Assembly: GCA_963835125.1 (NCBI GenBank)
Contig: CAWIEG010000011.1
Location: forward strand, 16,769 to 80,768
Reading direction: 5' to 3'
Source of the DNA: an uncultured Acidobacteriaceae bacterium
GTDB lineage: Bacteria; Acidobacteriota; Terriglobia; Terriglobales; Acidobacteriaceae
DNA length: 64,000 nucleotides
A program made the translations under genes and the position numbers. Positions 49,590 to 59,995 of this stretch are shown piece after piece. Every line of letters begins with the position of its first letter. Within the stretch, counting starts at the first letter, position 1. The notes under the pieces were generated by a model. It was not told the DNA's origin. It saw only the letters and a list, made by a program, of their open reading frames with translations, and did no database searches.

Positions 49590-49679
49590 GGAGAGGTGCG
49601 TGAGTGGTTGAAACGAGCCGCCTCGAAAGCGGCCATACCTTGACGGGTATCGGGGGTTCGAATCCCTCCCTCTCCGCCA
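49590..49679 (+). tRNA. tRNA-Ser (anticodon CGA), CCA encoded
   Basis: GGAGAGG acceptor pairs with CCTCTCC. Anticodon arm GCCGC-CTCGAAA-GCGGC. Long variable arm. GGTTCGAATCC T-loop. G discriminator plus CCA. Confidence 0.93.
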
Positions 49680-49824: not shown

Positions 49825-51261
49825 ATGACAGCTCTCGAACTCTCCACCCAGGATTTCCGCCGTTTAGCTGCCGACATCGTCAACCTCTGCGCGGAATATT
49901 TGTCCACCTTAGACCAACGTTCCACGTTTCCCCAGACAACCGGTGCAGATAGCCAGCGCCTCTTCGACCTCGACCTGCCGGAGCGCGGCATGGGCGATCA
50001 GGCCTTTGCCGCGCTTACGGATGTTATCGGGAACTCGCGTGTTCAAAACGGCCGCTTTTTCGGATACGTCCATGGATCGGGAGAGCCAATTGCCGCGCTC
50101 GGCGATCTCCTGGCTTCAGTTCTGAACCAGAACATCACGGCCTGGCGTTCTTCGCCGGCAGGTGTAACCATCGAGCGCACTGTGGTTCGCTGGTTGTCAG
50201 AAGCAGTCGGCTGCCGTGGTTTCGTCGGGACGCTGACCAGTGGAGGCTCCGCTGCCAACCTTATGGGTCTGGCTATGGCACGCGAGAGGAAAACTCCGGC
50301 CAACGAACGAGGTCTTTACAATGCGAGGACGGGCATAATCTACGCCTCAGAGCAAGTACACATGGCCGTGCCCAAAGCCGTGGCCATGCTCGGAATTGGG
50401 CGTGAAAATCTGCATTACATCCCATGCGACGATTCTTACCGCATGGTGCCGTCGCTACTGGAGCGAGCGATCCGCCAGGACGAAGCGCAAGGGCGGGCGC
50501 CAATTGCAGTGGTTGCATCGGCGGGAACCGTAAACACCGGCTCTATCGACCCGCTGCGAGAAATCGCAGCTATTGCCCGCTCCCATGATCTCTGGATGCA
50601 CGTAGATGGCGCCTACGGGGCCCTGGCTGCGATGGCTGCGCCTGAAAAATTCGATGGTCTGGCTCTGGCCGATTCACTTTCCCTCGATCCCCATAAATGG
50701 CTGTACCAACCCCTCGATTGCGGGTGCCTGCTTTATCGAGATGCCGCGTCGGCGCAGAGTACCTTCACTTATACCGGCAACTATGCCAAACAACTTAGTT
50801 CCGATCCAGTTGAGGGCTTTGCATTTTTCGAGGAGTCTATCGAGCTTTCGCGCCGCTTCCGCGCCTTGAAACTATGGCTCTCGCTACGCTACCACGGGCT
50901 GGCCGCCTTCCGCGCCGCCATCCAGCAGGACCTCGATCATGCTCAACACCTGGCGGCGGCAATCAAAGATTCTGCTCTGCTTGAGCTTCTTGGTCCGGTT
51001 GAGCTAAGCGCAGTTTGCTTCCGCCACGTGCTGGACAAGGACGCCTCCGAAGACATGCGCAATCGCTTCAATCTGGCCTTGTTGAAACGCATTGTTGCGC
51101 GCGGGAAGGTGTATCTCTCGAACGCAGAATTGAAGGGCAAGTTCTGTCTTCGTGCCTGCATTGTGAATCACCGTACACGGGAAGGAGATATCTCTGCGGT
51201 GGTTCGCGAGGTTCTAGAGGTTGCGCATGACGTAATCTCAGAGGTCGGCAATATGGTCTAG
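49825..51261 (+). CDS. PLP-dependent group II decarboxylase (aromatic-L-amino-acid/glutamate decarboxylase family)
   Basis: TSGGSAANL...HVDGAYGA...SLSLDPHKWLYQPLDCG (PLP-Lys motif). Confidence 0.85.
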   Translation: MTALELSTQDFRRLAADIVNLCAEYLSTLDQRSTFPQTTGADSQRLFDLDLPERGMGDQAFAALTDVIGNSRVQNGRFFGYVHGSGEPIAALGDLLASVLNQNITAWRSSPAGVTIERTVVRWLSEAVGCRGFVGTLTSGGSAANLMGLAMARERKTPANERGLYNARTGIIYASEQVHMAVPKAVAMLGIGRENLHYIPCDDSYRMVPSLLERAIRQDEAQGRAPIAVVASAGTVNTGSIDPLREIAAIARSHDLWMHVDGAYGALAAMAAPEKFDGLALADSLSLDPHKWLYQPLDCGCLLYRDAASAQSTFTYTGNYAKQLSSDPVEGFAFFEESIELSRRFRALKLWLSLRYHGLAAFRAAIQQDLDHAQHLAAAIKDSALLELLGPVELSAVCFRHVLDKDASEDMRNRFNLALLKRIVARGKVYLSNAELKGKFCLRACIVNHRTREGDISAVVREVLEVAHDVISEVGNMV

Positions 51262-51441
51262 CGGTCAGATGGCGATTCGTTACTGCCGCCACTATTGCTG
51301 GTGCGAAAAGGGGACTCGCCCATTAAGATCAAGGAGAGCTAAAGGTGAGACCATCATCCCAGTCGTCAGCAGTTGGGCGATCGACCGTGTAGAGGTCACG
51401 CGGTCGCGGCTCCGATTCGACCAGAAAGGGCCTTCTGCAAT

Positions 51442-52371
51442 ATGAAGTACGACGTCTTCATCTCCTTCAAAGACTCTGGCAAGGATGGTTTGCCAACACC
51501 GGATTCCACGCACGCGCGCGCCGTTTACGAAGCGCTCATGGCAATCGGGTTGAAGGTGTTCTTCAGTGAAGAGTCGCTCGCCGAGGCGGGACAGGGCAAT
51601 TTCTCCAGGAGCATCGAGACTGCGCTCGAATCGGCCCGCATTTTAATTCTCGTGGCCTCCTGCCGCGAACACATCGAGTCGCGCTGGGTCGAAGCTGAGT
51701 GGGATTCCTTCCTGGAGGACCTGCGCAGCGGCAACAAGCAGGGCGAACTGTTCATTCTCAGCTGCGGCAAACTGAGCCCAGCCGACCTGCCTCTCTTTCT
51801 CCGCCGTCAGCAAATGTTTCCTGCGGATGGCCTCGACAAATTGCTCAAGTTTGTTGTCAATGCCATGCCGCGGCGTAGCTCGCTCCGTGATTTCATACGG
51901 GGATCACTGCACTGTTTCCACCCCGAGAAGGACGAAGACAAAGTCTATCTGCTGACCGTTCACCCAGGCAGCAATGCAGATACCTACCACGTCACGGCCT
52001 ATTGGGGTGCGCGAACCGCGAAGAGGCTGAACAGCCAGATGAAAGTCCGCGATGTCCCGGCAGGGCGGGCCCAGTTGGAGGTGGAGAGGGATAAGAAGGA
52101 AAAGCTCCGCAACGGCTACGTCGAAAAACCCTTTGCCAGGATCCTGACACCCGAAGCCCGGTCGCTCATGTCGGCATCGCTGGGCTTGTACGAGGCTCCA
52201 GGAAAGGCCGGCCCGGCGCGTGCAGCCGGCTCGAAGGCGGGCCGATCCAGCAAGTCGCAGCAGGCTGCCGAAGAGACGGCCGGAACAGCGGCAAAGCGCA
52301 AGGTGGAATCGCGCGTGTCTGGGGCGGCCGCCAGAGGAAAGACAGTCAGGGCGGCGCGCAAGCAACAGTAG
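51442..52371 (+). CDS. TIR-domain protein fused to a WGR domain and a Lys/Arg/Ala-rich tail
   Basis: N-terminus MKYDVFISFKDSGKD...KVFFSEESL...ILILVASCREHIESRWVEAEWDSFL is a TIR fold with the conserved Glu region. Residues about 155-235, KVYLLTVHPGSNADTYHVTAYWGARTAKRLNSQMKVRDVPAGRAQLEVERDKKEKLRNGYVE, fit the WGR pattern (KFY..., WGRIG, eK..kGY). The C-terminal 70 aa are basic and low-complexity. Confidence 0.75.
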   Translation: MKYDVFISFKDSGKDGLPTPDSTHARAVYEALMAIGLKVFFSEESLAEAGQGNFSRSIETALESARILILVASCREHIESRWVEAEWDSFLEDLRSGNKQGELFILSCGKLSPADLPLFLRRQQMFPADGLDKLLKFVVNAMPRRSSLRDFIRGSLHCFHPEKDEDKVYLLTVHPGSNADTYHVTAYWGARTAKRLNSQMKVRDVPAGRAQLEVERDKKEKLRNGYVEKPFARILTPEARSLMSASLGLYEAPGKAGPARAAGSKAGRSSKSQQAAEETAGTAAKRKVESRVSGAAARGKTVRAARKQQ

Positions 52372-52579
52372 GGTCAAGGACTGGCGCGGCGGATCGGACG
52401 ACCACTCCGTTTCCAGCCCTCACTGCGGCCGGCGGCCTGGATCAGTCCATCAGCTAAGAGACGCCTTCGAAGCTCATATCCACGCCAAGCTCTGGCTGAG
52501 GTGGTGGACCTTATCTGAGTTCACCGGTCCCAAGTGCGAGCGCTAACGAAGCCGTCGAGAACCAACGCTCCGACTGCCA

Positions 52580-53791
52580 CTAACTCAGGAACGGCCCGAA
52601 GTGCGATGTCTGCACTGCGCCCCCGGCGGCCTTGCCGATCTTAAATAAGGTCGTCATATTTTCCACGGCATCCATCTTCTGGATGTTGCTCGGCTGCACG
52701 TCCGGGAATCCCAAATTGCGGAGACCCGTGTCGCTGAGATCGGCGTTATAACGCGCGTACAAAAAACGACGTCCCAAGTCTGTTGAAAGTGGAATGGTTG
52801 GAGCCTGGTATTGCTCGGCCGTGGTCATCCCTTCGTGCACCTGTCGCGGCACCAGATCGAGGATTTCGCTGTCGAGCGGAGCGCCATACGTGCAGCGTCC
52901 CACGGTACGGCAGTTGATGTCCTGGTCGATCAACATTCCGTACATGAGTTCACCCGGAAGCCCTGCGACGGTGGACACCATGTTTTGGTTCGGCGCGGCA
53001 GCCGTAGCTCCTTTCGACTCGGCAGCTCCCGTGCCCACGGATATTAGCAGCAGGTTGTTCTCCCCGGTCTTCCAGTTCAACCGGTATGCGGGCTCGGTGG
53101 CCATGCGGTACAGCAGGAATGCTGGATCGTTGTAGGGAGTCACGCCCCCATCGGCAAAAACGAATGTCTCCGAAGCGTCGTTCGGGTTCCACTGCAGAAT
53201 TTCGGGAGGGAAATACACCGGGGCGGCAGTGCTGGCCCGAACCAACTGCCAGAGTGGAATCTTCAGGTTGTTGTTGTCTGTAGTCGGATCATTGTATTTG
53301 GCGTCCGGGTTACTGCTGATCGGCCACGGGGAGTCCGTCGTAACGTTCTTGGTGACCACCAGAAGCAGGCACTTCAGCCCTTGGTCTGCGGTACTCTGCG
53401 GCGCCGCCAAGGTTGTGTTCTCGCCAAACACATCCCTCAGTTTTGCCCGCAGCGGATCCGCGGTGTAGAGACACTTGAGTCTTTGCAGCAGCCTTGACGG
53501 CTCAAACATTTCTTCTCCGGCGGAGTTATAGAAGTCGACCAGTTCTGCCGTGGTTTTCCCGAGCGACAGGCCTGCGGCGATGATCGCCCCCGTACTGGTC
53601 CCGGCGATGTAGTCGAAATACTCGTGGAGCTTCTGGCCTGTCTTTTGGTGTATCAATTCCTCGATCTGGCTCAATATGCCGAGCGTGATCAGACCGCGTA
53701 TCCCACCTCCGTCAAGCGCCAGCATTCGGTGAGGTCTATCTTCTTCATAACGGCTACGCAGCGATTTCCATTCGATGGGACGCAGGAGCAT
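52580..53791 (-). CDS. Patatin-like phospholipase
   Basis: LALDGGGIRGLITLG (oxyanion hole), YIAGTSTGAIIA (GxSxG nucleophile), FADGGVTPYNDP (catalytic Asp). Full-length patatin architecture of 403 aa. Confidence 0.88.
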   Translation of the reverse strand: MLLRPIEWKSLRSRYEEDRPHRMLALDGGGIRGLITLGILSQIEELIHQKTGQKLHEYFDYIAGTSTGAIIAAGLSLGKTTAELVDFYNSAGEEMFEPSRLLQRLKCLYTADPLRAKLRDVFGENTTLAAPQSTADQGLKCLLLVVTKNVTTDSPWPISSNPDAKYNDPTTDNNNLKIPLWQLVRASTAAPVYFPPEILQWNPNDASETFVFADGGVTPYNDPAFLLYRMATEPAYRLNWKTGENNLLLISVGTGAAESKGATAAAPNQNMVSTVAGLPGELMYGMLIDQDINCRTVGRCTYGAPLDSEILDLVPRQVHEGMTTAEQYQAPTIPLSTDLGRRFLYARYNADLSDTGLRNLGFPDVQPSNIQKMDAVENMTTLFKIGKAAGGAVQTSHFGPFLS

Positions 53792-54018
53792 GGAATCCCC
53801 TTTTCATTTACGACAGTGCATAATACGGTTCGTGTGAGACTCGTTGAGGAGGCCACCGGATCATAACTCTCTTCCGCGCCTGCAGTCGATGTCATTGATG
53901 GGTTGCGGGAACAGCCGCGCCCCGGGAACAGCGCAGCAGTTCCAAGGGGGGTGTCGAACCAGGGGATGATGGTGTCCGTGAATCGCAGAGAGTTCTTCGT
54001 CGAATTGGGGTATCGGCA

Positions 54019-54594
54019 GTGACTAGCAAAGCGTCAGTCTTAGAAGCCCGCGGGAAATCCGCTGGACGCACCGTCATCATCGAAGCCGGACGGCGTGTCG
54101 ACGCACCGGACGCGCAGAGTCCACGCTTTCGGCCGTCCAAAGTCTCCGAGGTAAGCCGCCGCATAAGGGAATTGCTACATAAGCAGAATCCGTTGGCGGT
54201 CGTTTGTTCCGCTGCTTGCGGCGCCGATCTCCTCCTGCTGCAAGCTGCTGGGGAAATGCACATCGAGCAGGTCGTGCTCTTGCCCTCGGAACCGGAAGCC
54301 TTTCGAAAGTCCTCCGTGACGGATCATCCAGGAAACTGGGGCGAACTCTATGACCAGGTATTGAAAACGGCACGAGTGGAGATCCTGGGACTTCCTGAAG
54401 GTCAGGAGGGGTACCTGGAAACCAATCGCAAGCTACTCGATCGCGGTCAGCAACTGGCGCGCGAGAACAGCGTGCCTGCCGAAGCCCTGGTGATATGGAA
54501 CGGAATCTCGCGCGGCCCCGACGACGTTACGGCTCACTTCCTGCATGAGGCCAAGTCACGCAAGATGACGGTGCTGGAAATCTCCACTGTGTGA
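54019..54594 (+). CDS. Uncharacterised alpha/beta protein, possibly SLOG-superfamily (YpsA/MoCo-carrier/LOG-like)
   Basis: 191 aa: RTVIIEAGRRVDAPDAQSPRFRP...LAVVCSAACGADLLLLQAAGEMHIEQVVLLP...FRKSSV...WGELYDQVL. The Gly-rich loop plus helix after a beta-strand recalls SLOG nucleotide-binding motifs. Assignment is from memory only. GTG start. Confidence 0.4.
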   Translation: MTSKASVLEARGKSAGRTVIIEAGRRVDAPDAQSPRFRPSKVSEVSRRIRELLHKQNPLAVVCSAACGADLLLLQAAGEMHIEQVVLLPSEPEAFRKSSVTDHPGNWGELYDQVLKTARVEILGLPEGQEGYLETNRKLLDRGQQLARENSVPAEALVIWNGISRGPDDVTAHFLHEAKSRKMTVLEISTV

Positions 54595-54734
54595 ACACGG
54601 CTGTAAGGGCGGAAAAGTAGAATCTTTGCCGAGGACACCATGCCACCCATCTGCTTTATGGCATACCTGACCCCTGACCAACGGATTTCGTGCCTAACAG
54701 TTGCTGTCGCCAGCTGGTTGAGAGTTAGCAGACT

Positions 54735-55847
54735 TTATTGGAACTCAAGCATCACGATTTCGGGATTCGATCCGAGGCGGAGCGGCGGTCCCCAAGTTCC
54801 TGCTCCGCTCGACGTGAAAACCTGCATTTTTCCAATCCGGCTCAGGCCGTAAACAAACTGCCGGTAAGCCCGCCGCGCCATCCAACTCCAGGGTATGAAC
54901 TGCCCCAAATGAGTGTGCCCCGAGAGTTGCAGGGAAATACCCGCAGCTTCCGCGATCTCCGGATGGTCAGGCGCGTGCGTCAACAGAATGCTGGGGCGGT
55001 CGCGATCCAAACGGATCTCGTGTAACGCCGACGCAAGGTGTGCTTTTTGCGTTGCATTCCGGTACGGCACGCCAACAATCTGCAAGCCATCCAGTTCCAC
55101 CTTCTCATTGCTGAGCACGCGCACTCCGGCAGCGGCAATGGCGCGCAGATATTTGCTGTCGTCCCCAAATTGCTCATGATTGCCGGCCACGAAATACACT
55201 CCGTGGGGGGCGACCAATTGGTTCAGTGGCTCCGCCGCTCTCTGCGCGTCGATGGCCGTCCCGTCATAGAGGTCTCCGGCGATAAAAATCGCGTCTGGCT
55301 CCTGTTTCAAGATCGTCGCCACTATCCGCCTCAGGAAACTGCCGTTCCGCACAGGTCCGAGGTGTAAATCGCTGATCAACGCCGCGCGTCGTCCGCGCCA
55401 CGCCGCCGGTAGGTTCGCGAGCCGCACTGTTGTTCGCGTGATCCGCGTCCAGCTTGCGTTGAAAACCCCGTAGAGTCCGGCGAAGACTGCTACACCAAAC
55501 AAGAACTCAACGGTCCGATGAAAGTTCATGTCCAGCCCGGCCACTCGCCCAATCCCGAAAAGAATCCAGGAGGCAGTCGCTGCGAGCAGGAGAAAGCTGA
55601 ACAGGCCTGTCCAAACCGCAGCAACCCGGTAAATCGCGCTCACAACTGCGTTCGTATAGCGATAGGCGAGTAGCGAGGCAGCCACAAAGCTTACCGACAA
55701 GATGCCCAGGACGAGTTTGATCCAGAACGCTCCCGGTGTATTGCTCTGGGCGGATGAAAATGTCCACGTTTTGTAGAGCAGCCAATGCGTCGACCAGAGA
55801 ACGAACTGAATCACTGCAATAAAACCAATTAAGCTTCTTCGTGTCAT
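54735..55847 (-). CDS. Membrane-anchored metallophosphoesterase (YkuE-like calcineurin-type)
   Basis: Four or five N-terminal TM segments, then ISDLHLG, IAGDLYDG, GNHE, LTHAP, SGHTHLGQ. Confidence 0.85.
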   Translation of the reverse strand: MTRRSLIGFIAVIQFVLWSTHWLLYKTWTFSSAQSNTPGAFWIKLVLGILSVSFVAASLLAYRYTNAVVSAIYRVAAVWTGLFSFLLLAATASWILFGIGRVAGLDMNFHRTVEFLFGVAVFAGLYGVFNASWTRITRTTVRLANLPAAWRGRRAALISDLHLGPVRNGSFLRRIVATILKQEPDAIFIAGDLYDGTAIDAQRAAEPLNQLVAPHGVYFVAGNHEQFGDDSKYLRAIAAAGVRVLSNEKVELDGLQIVGVPYRNATQKAHLASALHEIRLDRDRPSILLTHAPDHPEIAEAAGISLQLSGHTHLGQFIPWSWMARRAYRQFVYGLSRIGKMQVFTSSGAGTWGPPLRLGSNPEIVMLEFQ

Positions 55848-59910: not shown

Positions 59911-59995
59911 TGGTGCGAAAGGGGGGACTCGAACCCCCACGGTTTTACCCGCCAGATCCTAAGTCTGGTGCGTCTGCCAATTCCGCCACTTTCGC
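59911..59995 (-). tRNA. tRNA-Leu (anticodon TAG), CCA encoded
   Basis: The minus strand reads GCGAAAG-TG-GCGGAATTGGCAGACGC...CCAGA-CTTAGGA-TCTGG, then a long variable arm, GGGGGTTCGAGTCCCCC, then CTTTCGC-A-CCA. Confidence 0.92.

Follow-up and report, generated by a model that had tools for sequence, protein, structure and literature searches.

A patatin phospholipase and a SLOG-like protein, very probably one functional unit, encoded next to a TIR-WGR gene in an uncultured acidobacterium

The characterised SLOG protein of a defence system, ThsA, is a sensor, and nucleotide-signalling conflict systems centred on TPR-S proteins were reportedly described by Burroughs and colleagues in 2015. Here we analyse a stretch of 64,000 nucleotides (nt) from contig CAWIEG010000011.1 of an uncultured Acidobacteriaceae bacterium (in the following "the window"), in which three neighbouring genes encode a TIR-WGR protein, a patatin-like phospholipase and a SLOG-like protein. 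The closest described system is "TIR + SLOG Patatin", a putative Thoeris type (Yirmiya et al. 2025, 10.64898/2025.12.03.692087, Tables S1, S2). Among the putative effectors encoded beside TIR genes, the same authors list "SLOG Patatin" and "SLOG and 4TM" proteins; when tested in E. coli, neither gave defence (10.64898/2025.12.03.692087). Furthermore, YpsA-Tpr and Patatin-Tpr assemblies (both in place of Tir-Tpr) and LSDAT assemblies are reported in the BcTir/Tpr preprint (10.1101/2023.05.26.542521), and Aravind's group has argued that some SLOG clades generate signals derived from ADP-ribose (ADPR; PMC9503650). An original prediction, made from the letters of the DNA, had proposed the three genes as a candidate defence module whose gene set was unlike canonical Thoeris or CBASS; that such a set matches nothing known is outdated, as the combination of a TIR with a SLOG-patatin has already been predicted. 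What is new is the split arrangement of patatin and SLOG-like protein.

All three open reading frames (ORFs) are present at the coordinates first given for them, downstream of a tRNA-Ser gene (49590-49679). The TIR-WGR protein (309 amino acids, aa) is encoded at 51442..52371 on the plus strand, the patatin-like phospholipase (403 aa) at 52580..53791 on the minus strand and the small SLOG-like protein (191 aa) at 54019..54594 on the plus strand. The reading that we favour, and consider somewhat probable, is that the patatin and the SLOG-like protein are the two subunits of an effector of a nucleotide-signalling conflict system, lying directly beside a TIR-WGR gene that is separately mobile.

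To describe the company of the SLOG-like gene, we searched 80 genomic loci encoding relatives of the SLOG-like protein with the proteins of the window (tblastn). A patatin is found in 28 of these SLOG-anchored loci, and in 27 of the 28 it lies directly beside the SLOG-like gene. The arrangement varies: 19 patatin genes are divergent, four are co-directional and upstream, three are co-directional and downstream, one is convergent and one lies at a distance of 2 kb. The patatin-positive loci come from Acidobacteriota, Nitrospirota and Bacteroidota, with patatin identities ranging from 35% to 93%. Starting from the patatin, all four patatin-anchored loci (4/4) have a divergent gene for a 178-aa SLOG-like protein 30-75 bp upstream. 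Furthermore, both parts occur in a single polypeptide, P0383 (583 aa), the patatin preceding the SLOG-like domain; its patatin half matches the window protein at 47% over 403 aa and its C-terminal SLOG-like half at 43% over 178 aa. Adjacency kept in several orientations, with a gene fusion besides, argues strongly that the two proteins work together, and we regard them as very probably one functional unit. That part of the clustered module has held, whereas the TIR-WGR gene is not syntenic with the pair: it is missing from all 80 SLOG-anchored loci (0/80), as are the metallophosphoesterase and the pyridoxal phosphate (PLP)-dependent decarboxylase encoded on the two sides of the window's locus (0/80 each).

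The same division is seen in the DNA. The closest TIR-WGR locus, in a metagenome-assembled genome of the Terriglobales (L004), matches the window in blastn at 93% over 51326-52354 and at 86.5% over 52346-52557, with no further match; its flanks are MacB and AraC genes, and it has neither a patatin nor a SLOG-like gene. Three patatin–SLOG-like loci (L011, L012 and L013), on the other hand, match the window with 88-89% identity confined to 52553/52555-54622/54661, and none of the window's other neighbour genes is found in them (tblastn). Because the homology to L004 and that to L011-L013 both end near 52555, the region is made up of two separate cassettes, a TIR-WGR cassette (51326..52557) and a two-gene cassette of patatin and SLOG-like gene (52553..54661). 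These are independently distributed and meet within a few bases of 52555. The GC content is flat across the region (~0.58). Two further contigs, L091 (99.4% identical) and L177 (98-99% identical), represent the same organism or population as the window and so add no independent case of the juxtaposition.

Next, we asked what kind of protein the SLOG-like gene encodes. The 191-aa product has no match in Pfam (E up to 10), NCBIfam (E up to 0.1) or PADLOC. Its AlphaFold2 (AF2) model (predicted local distance difference test, pLDDT, 89.3) shows a beta-alpha-beta fold, and the top matches of the model in a Foldseek search of PDB all belong to the SLOG superfamily, namely DprA, ShosA, the molybdenum cofactor (Moco) carrier protein and LOG (E 1e-5 to 1e-2, probability 0.9-1.0). 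A SLOG-superfamily fold, as had been proposed from a strand-loop-helix motif, is therefore supported by the predicted structure. The description of the protein as an orphan has to be given up: it has 343 close homologues, and the family comprises 2,495 representatives at 50% identity, mostly stand-alone proteins of ~180 aa. In the family alignment (A1) we see the motifs GRRVD after strand 1, SAACGADLL after strand 2, SVTDRPGNW and WN..SRGPDDVTAHF, and a number of charged residues that are invariant in the family (R25, R26, D28, R36, D70, R96, D102, R103, N136, R165, D169 and H173, as listed from the same alignment). In viral contigs we found no relative of either of the two families searched, and we have set aside a phage origin or an anti-defence role on this ground. 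One 396-aa relative, P0481, combines an ECF-type sigma-70 factor (regions 2 and 4) with a C-terminal SLOG-like domain, which suggests ligand-controlled transcription in some lineages.

So many invariant charged residues, together with the presence of ShosA and LOG enzymes among the fold matches, can also be taken as signs of a function that does not depend on any TIR. The SLOG-like protein might be an enzyme (a LOG-like N-glycosidase or a nucleotide processor, by which a signal for TPR-S is made or destroyed), or it might restrain the patatin as a ShosA-like antitoxin. Signal-generating SLOG clades and the YpsA-Tpr and Patatin-Tpr assemblies, both introduced above, would be in line with this. 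On the other hand, there is no match to the catalytic motif of LOG (PGGxGTxxE), and ThsA, the characterised SLOG of a defence system, senses its ligand.

The neighbourhoods of the SLOG-like family bear on both readings. Scanning the directly adjoining genes of 75 loci with Pfam, we find Patatin (22), TPR-S (PF20308; 11), TIR_2 (10), SLATT/DUF4231 (6) and LSDAT_prok (4). A census of all ORFs within 10 kb, with hidden Markov models (HMMs) built for this analysis and checked against the Pfam scans, gives for the 80 SLOG-anchored loci 28 with patatin, 27 with TPR-S, 17 with TIR (10 of them within 3 kb) and 5 with SLATT. TPR-S is seen in 18 of the 32 patatin-positive loci. A recurrent partner is a TPR-S protein of 445 aa, of which a 680-aa form ends in a copy of the SLOG-like domain; P0402 and the long C1 are fusions of TPR-S to the SLOG-like domain. 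Pfam finds nothing in the N-terminal domain of the common TPR-S partner, and "ThsI-like", with the CMP-hydrolase domain of ThsI as its counterpart, remains a guess for it. Other recurrent partners are TPR-S–patatin fusions, TIR–TPR-S, TIR–FGE-sulfatase and LSDAT–SLATT proteins.

Several of these neighbourhoods are on plasmids. For example, a plasmid of Lichenicola cladoniae (L178, NZ_CP053711.1, 4596-6954) carries a tight TIR–SLOG-like–TIR operon; next to it are genes for an MmeI restriction-modification enzyme of type IIL, a methyltransferase and the antidote of an addiction module. On a Rhizobium plasmid, SLOG-like, DUF4231, patatin and DUF4071 genes form a run, on a Streptomyces plasmid the SLOG-like gene follows MoxR and a CHAT–TPR protein, and further relatives lie near toxin-antitoxin and transposase genes on plasmids. 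Judged from their domains, these neighbours are the vocabulary of nucleotide-signalling conflict systems and of the expanded Thoeris catalogue, and we think that the patatin/SLOG-like pair probably has a role in conflict or defence.

The layout of the Lichenicola operon resembles the multi-TIR plus SLOG arrangement that is reported for type III Thoeris. In another locus, on an acidobacterial metagenome contig (L173:7621-12202), a patatin–SLOG-like pair has a Tc-toxin gene on one side; on the other, at a distance of 400 bp, an nSTAND/AAA_16–phosphoesterase protein and a TIR protein of 503 aa are encoded. This locus looks like a defence/toxin island.

The tight association and fusion with TPR-S (27/80 loci, P0402, the long C1) is what would be expected of a SLOG-like protein that works without a TIR, and 24 of the 32 patatin–SLOG loci have no TIR within 10 kb. 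However, TPR-S and TIR are both absent from the surroundings of 11 of the 32 patatin-positive loci, and TPR-S is missing from the window too. Taken together, we hold a TIR-independent role to be unlikely, and prefer to see in the SLOG-like protein the sensing subunit of the patatin effector.

As to the patatin itself, the claim of a full-length protein with intact motifs was confirmed. It matches Pfam Patatin (E 6.4e-27, 95.4 bits against a cutoff of 27.7), and the translation has the glycine-rich oxyanion motif DGGGIRG, the nucleophile motif GTSTG and the aspartate motif ADGG, all intact, followed by a family-specific C-terminal extension of ~140 aa. Its best PADLOC and NCBIfam matches are phospholipases of the cyclic oligonucleotide-based antiphage signalling system (CBASS; E 4.5e-43 and 3e-34). 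We have rejected membership in CBASS (as a CapV), since the NCBIfam model CBASS_lipase (NF041079, equivalog) scores 118.7 bits, under its cutoff of 200, and none of the window's ORFs near the locus encodes a cyclase.

The TIR-WGR protein consists of a TIR domain (aa 1-~145), a WGR-like beta-sheet with a helix (aa ~150-235) and a disordered basic tail rich in Lys, Ala and Pro (aa ~250-309). The ATG at 51442, rather than the TTG upstream of it, is the start shared by every homologue in the alignment of the family (A5). The TIR domain is matched by Pfam TIR_2 (aa 5-109, E 1.1e-10, 42.5 bits against a cutoff of 28). For the alignment-based AF2 model (pLDDT 79.9), the best Foldseek matches are the TIR domains of SARM1, RUN1, AbTir, TIR-STING and SPARTA, with E values of 3e-5 to 2e-4 for SARM1, RUN1 and AbTir. 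Within the motif SRWVEAEW, to which the original prediction had pointed as the conserved Glu region, S80, W82 and E86 are conserved, and E86 is invariant in 40 homologues (A5). This is the position of the catalytic Glu in TIRs of the SxWxxxE type. By homology and modelled fold it is a probable NAD-cleaving TIR (NAD, nicotinamide adenine dinucleotide) with E86 as the candidate catalytic residue.

The assignment of the WGR domain stands in part. The fold and the annotation of homologues agree with it, whereas the PF05406 match in the window protein itself is below threshold (14.4 bits, E 0.042, cutoff 22; model positions 10-76 of 79). The AF2 model has four strands and a helix at aa 152-223, the homologues P0198 and P0232 have a precomputed PF05406 match over the same region and no extra domain, and several homologues bear the name "WGR domain protein" at the Joint Genome Institute (JGI). 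In some homologues a canonical WGR or BRCT domain is added.

We wanted to know whether the TIR-WGR gene keeps the company of the other two genes elsewhere. A homologue of 92% identity lies between MacB and AraC genes, homologues of 70-72% lie beside genes for dihydrodipicolinate synthase (DHDPS) and apurinic/apyrimidinic (AP) endonuclease, one of 78% lies beside DsbB and transglutaminase, and one of 66% beside esterase and Rnf genes. None of these four acidobacterial contexts has a patatin or SLOG-like gene nearby. A metagenome scan gave 80 further TIR-WGR loci; the 37 with a full-length protein, together with L004, L007 and L008, make up the 40 loci analysed (364 kb), and a patatin or a close SLOG-like relative occurs in none of them (0/40, tblastn). 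Two contigs (7943 bp and 6966 bp) that seemed to share matches to TIR-WGR and patatin turned out to be unrelated contigs.

These results bear on the idea that all three genes are one dedicated Thoeris-like system, in which the WGR domain senses infection and a cADPR-type signal (cADPR, cyclic ADPR) is received by the SLOG-like protein, which then activates the patatin. In favour of it, the genes are in contact in the window, with cassette ends a few bases apart; a TIR lies within 10 kb in 17 of the 80 SLOG-like loci and in 8 of the 32 patatin-positive ones; the Lichenicola plasmid has its TIR–SLOG-like–TIR operon; and "TIR + SLOG Patatin" is a predicted Thoeris type. On the other hand, the counts of 0/80 and 0/40, the four TIR-WGR contexts without both partners and the nearest patatin–SLOG loci (L011-L013) without TIR-WGR go against the expectation that homologues of the three genes co-localise. 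The genes are also convergent and divergent, forming no operon, and the juxtaposition is found in one lineage only.

A further argument for a tie between the families comes from 15 freshwater loci. In these the TIR-WGR gene lies downstream of a gene for a SLOG-like–SLATT protein of 570-627 aa (T0), with a gap of 13-68 bp in 14 loci and of 139 bp in one. Upstream of T0 there is in most cases a paralogue, T1, and both have sub-threshold SLATT matches in their membrane halves. Downstream of TIR-WGR we find a LigA-type NAD-dependent ligase (BRCT-WGR-BRCT), a MoxR ATPase, a DUF2201 VWA-metallopeptidase and an ankyrin–DUF4132 protein. The N-terminal motifs of T0 can be set beside those of the SLOG-like protein (TGHRD and GRRVD, SGLAEGADRL and SAACGADLL, WDG…GGTAEV and WNG…GPDDVT). 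With a broad SLOG-like profile of 131 diverse family representatives, hhalign aligned the N-terminal domain of T0 over 154 columns with a probability of 91% (E 1.1e-6), while control profiles (TIR, patatin and others) gave 0.5% or less; T1 is weaker (11.6%). Sequence profile searches of PDB with the SLOG-like family and with the N-terminal domain of T0 returned nothing.

In another phylum, TIR-WGR is thus operonically tied to a SLOG-like–SLATT protein that, on profile and motif evidence, belongs to the same SLOG clade. A producer–receptor relation between the TIR-WGR and SLOG-like families is credible from such gene orders, and the operons raise the prior of a functional juxtaposition in the window without proving it. 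Of the proposed chain of producer, receptor and effector, the general idea has gained from these operons and from the TIR-rich contexts of the SLOG-like family, whereas a conserved triad is not seen. We therefore regard the dedicated three-gene system as doubtful, and keep to a paired patatin/SLOG-like effector with a separately mobile TIR-WGR neighbour.

A whole co-directional cluster of T1, T0, TIR-WGR, ligase, MoxR, DUF2201 and DUF4132 genes is seen in L096-L116 (e.g. L097:6469-18217); it looks like an undescribed conflict/repair system centred on WGR and NAD.

How the paired effector would work can be sketched from its relatives. By analogy with ThsA, the SLOG-like protein would bind a nucleotide-derived signal, such as a derivative of NAD or ADPR. 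The signal-bound protein might then switch on the patatin through a protein complex (as for ThsA and CapV), and the patatin, like CapV, would degrade membrane phospholipid and so halt the infected cell. We infer these three steps, that is, ligand binding, patatin activation and membrane attack, from the analogies named. In the TIR-WGR protein, the WGR-like domain and the basic tail could tie NAD cleavage to a nucleic-acid cue. It would be the most plausible local source of the signal without being a fixed partner, and the coupling could be in trans. A relay from TIR to SLOG to patatin in the window is plausible; that TIR-WGR actually feeds the patatin–SLOG pair we consider possible, somewhat short of an even chance. 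Both the defence role and the relay from TIR to SLOG in this genome are what we infer from the comparisons above.

The 5' end of the SLOG-like gene has a history of its own. In the closest relatives the gene is 14-16 codons longer, and in the nearest clade (at least 51% identity) the N-terminus reads M(N/D)RRxF(L/V), followed by a hydrophobic stretch and AxA, and is twin-arginine-like; the rest of the family begins directly at MIIALAGRRVD. Pfam TAT_signal and NCBIfam find no twin-arginine translocation (Tat) signal in the leader. The gene of the window has lost this leader through a deletion of 1 nt near 54010-54013. What is left, as seen by comparison with L001, is an out-of-frame remnant of 17 codons on the plus strand (53969..54022, MVSVNRREFFVELGYRQ*), whose stop overlaps the GTG start at 54019; the 191-aa product retains the entire SLOG-like domain. 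A sequencing error was rejected as the cause, because the independent metagenome contig L177 carries the same deletion. The gene may be in decay, or it may have returned to a cytoplasmic form. The leader is confined to an Acidobacteriaceae clade (L011-L023, L026-L028, L031 and L036), and most of this clade has no patatin neighbour. An exported form of a presumed cytoplasmic sensor fits none of the explanations given here.

Between the divergent patatin and SLOG-like genes lies an intergenic region (53792..54018) with their presumed promoters, which is conserved as part of the cassette. It has one sigma-70-like site on the minus strand (53889-53860), no more than expected by chance. Compared with window positions 53880-53940, L177:1119-1419 has an extra 34-bp tandem copy of a CGGGAACAGCCGCGCC…-type sequence in this region.

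A number of observations weigh against a signalling effector. The SLOG-like protein is without any match to a Pfam family of the SLOG clan, and the template modelling (TM) scores of its Foldseek matches are modest (0.4-0.46). To our knowledge, no ligand, activity or phenotype has been reported for any member of its family. The twin-arginine-like leader of the nearest clade would place the protein outside the cytoplasm, and with its leader frameshifted the gene of the window may be decaying. The genes around the locus are metabolic, i.e. there is no defence island, and the window has no TPR-S gene. Of the 84 loci (80 SLOG-anchored and 4 patatin-anchored), 33 have no conflict-type neighbour at all. 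The patatin has at least 8000 homologues, with hundreds of Terriglobales clusters more than 70% identical, and such a wide spread and high conservation in the Terriglobales is unusual for a defence gene. Lastly, two TIR + "SLOG Patatin" operons that were tested gave no phage defence in E. coli (10.64898/2025.12.03.692087).

Some of these points would suit a housekeeping pair, that is, a lipid-remodelling lipase typical of the lineage together with an accessory protein that binds a cofactor or nucleotide and is possibly exported, the TIR being there by coincidence. The abundance of the patatin, the metabolic neighbours, the Tat-like leader with its two arginines and the 33 loci free of conflict genes all agree with it, as does the Moco carrier protein among the fold matches. 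However, the cassette homology ends sharply and the flanks differ in close relatives; relatives occur on plasmids beside restriction-modification, toxin-antitoxin and transposase genes; TIR, TPR-S and SLATT are strongly enriched among the neighbours; and neither Pfam nor NCBIfam detects the Tat signal. We find a housekeeping role improbable, and the conflict-system effector remains our preferred reading of the pair.

What follows for the SLOG-like family depends little on the window alone. The family makes up a large unannotated SLOG clade, with ~2,500 representatives at 50% identity and no solved relative by sequence. Its partner is a patatin that is very common in acidobacteria, and its links extend to signalling modules with TIR, TPR-S and SLATT domains. 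With it, Thoeris logic could be tested in a split-effector form in soil bacteria, a group that the catalogues of defence systems hardly cover, and the WGR-bearing TIR is a candidate link from nucleic-acid sensing to NAD-derived signalling. Should the pair not be defensive, it would be a nucleotide-regulated lipase widespread in Terriglobia. A more far-reaching and tentative proposal, which we consider rather less likely than not, is that TIR-WGR generates the signal in a Thoeris-like family not yet described. Here a PARP-type WGR and a histone-like tail would gate the TIR on a cue from DNA or another nucleic acid, and its product would be read by a new SLOG clade that is coupled, as a subunit of its own or by fusion, to interchangeable killers. 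If true, Acidobacteriota would use the patatin as killer and freshwater Betaproteobacteria would use SLATT pores, and the window would be the first case joining the producer with a split patatin effector.

The surroundings of the two cassettes were looked at as well. The SLOG-like gene is adjoined by a gene for a membrane calcineurin-like metallophosphoesterase (54735-55847, minus strand) with a PADLOC PDC-S10 match (E 1.2e-9), and the BcTir/Tpr preprint (10.1101/2023.05.26.542521) speaks of calcineurin-like partners. As a part of the system it was rejected: it recurs in 0/80 related loci and is probably unrelated. On the other side, the gene for the PLP-dependent decarboxylase (49825-51261) adjoins TIR-WGR on the same strand. 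In L007/L008 (5470-6867) a PLP-dependent decarboxylase, 34% identical, lies 3 kb from the 70% identical TIR-WGR on the opposite strand, which may be chance. Just upstream of the TIR-WGR cassette, 14 of 15 positions of the window's 51299-51313 (TGGTGCGAAAAGGGG) match the 3' end (59911-59925) of a tRNA-Leu gene (59911-59995), and this 15-nt match could be the remnant of an att site bounding an 8.6-kb insert. We do not adopt a tRNA-bounded integrative island, since its sole evidence is the 15-nt match, of a length that arises by chance in this region, and no integrase is present.

Finally, we compared the locus with the known systems. With Shosta it shares a two-gene unit of a toxic enzyme and a partner of SLOG/DprA fold, and ShosA is the second-best structural match (8zva, E 2.9e-5). 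However, the sequence identity is 12%, the toxic partner is a patatin and not a phosphoribosyltransferase, and PADLOC gives no Shosta match. The TPR-S-centred systems and type VIII Thoeris (ThsI) are similar in that SLOG-like relatives adjoin or fuse with TPR-S, and in having TPR-S–patatin, TIR–TPR-S and LSDAT–SLATT proteins; unlike them, the window lacks a TPR-S gene. CapV of CBASS has the patatin fold and the catalytic motifs in common with our patatin, whereas the window has no CD-NTase, the C-terminal extension of ~140 aa is distinct, and a SLOG-like partner takes the place of direct sensing of cyclic GMP-AMP (cGAMP).

Type I Thoeris (ThsB, a TIR, and ThsA, a SIR2-SLOG protein) is like the locus in its TIR with a catalytic Glu and in a SLOG fold partnered with a killing enzyme. 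It differs in that the window has no SIR2, for which reason a canonical ThsA was rejected; in that the effector is a separately encoded patatin, with TIR and effector not in one operon; and in that the SLOG-like protein of the window matches nothing in Pfam, NCBIfam or PADLOC. In Thoeris, the TIR and the effector are conserved neighbours. For TIR-WGR and the patatin–SLOG pair such a neighbourhood was found in none of the 80 and 40 loci, whereas TIR-WGR has it with SLOG-like–SLATT (15 loci) and TIRs of other types have it with the SLOG-like family. A Thoeris effector further combines a signal-binding with a killing domain, and this is what the conserved or fused pair of patatin and SLOG-like protein offers, its ligand binding being putative. 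The nearest likeness is to the TIR + SLOG-Patatin type of Yirmiya et al., which has the same three domains and the same logic, likened by description and not by sequence. In the window there are two divergent genes, where the order in the fusion is patatin and then SLOG, and the TIR, extended by a WGR-like domain and a basic tail, is not a conserved neighbour of theirs. The fusion P0383, on the other hand, joins a patatin and a SLOG-like domain of the window's own family in one protein.

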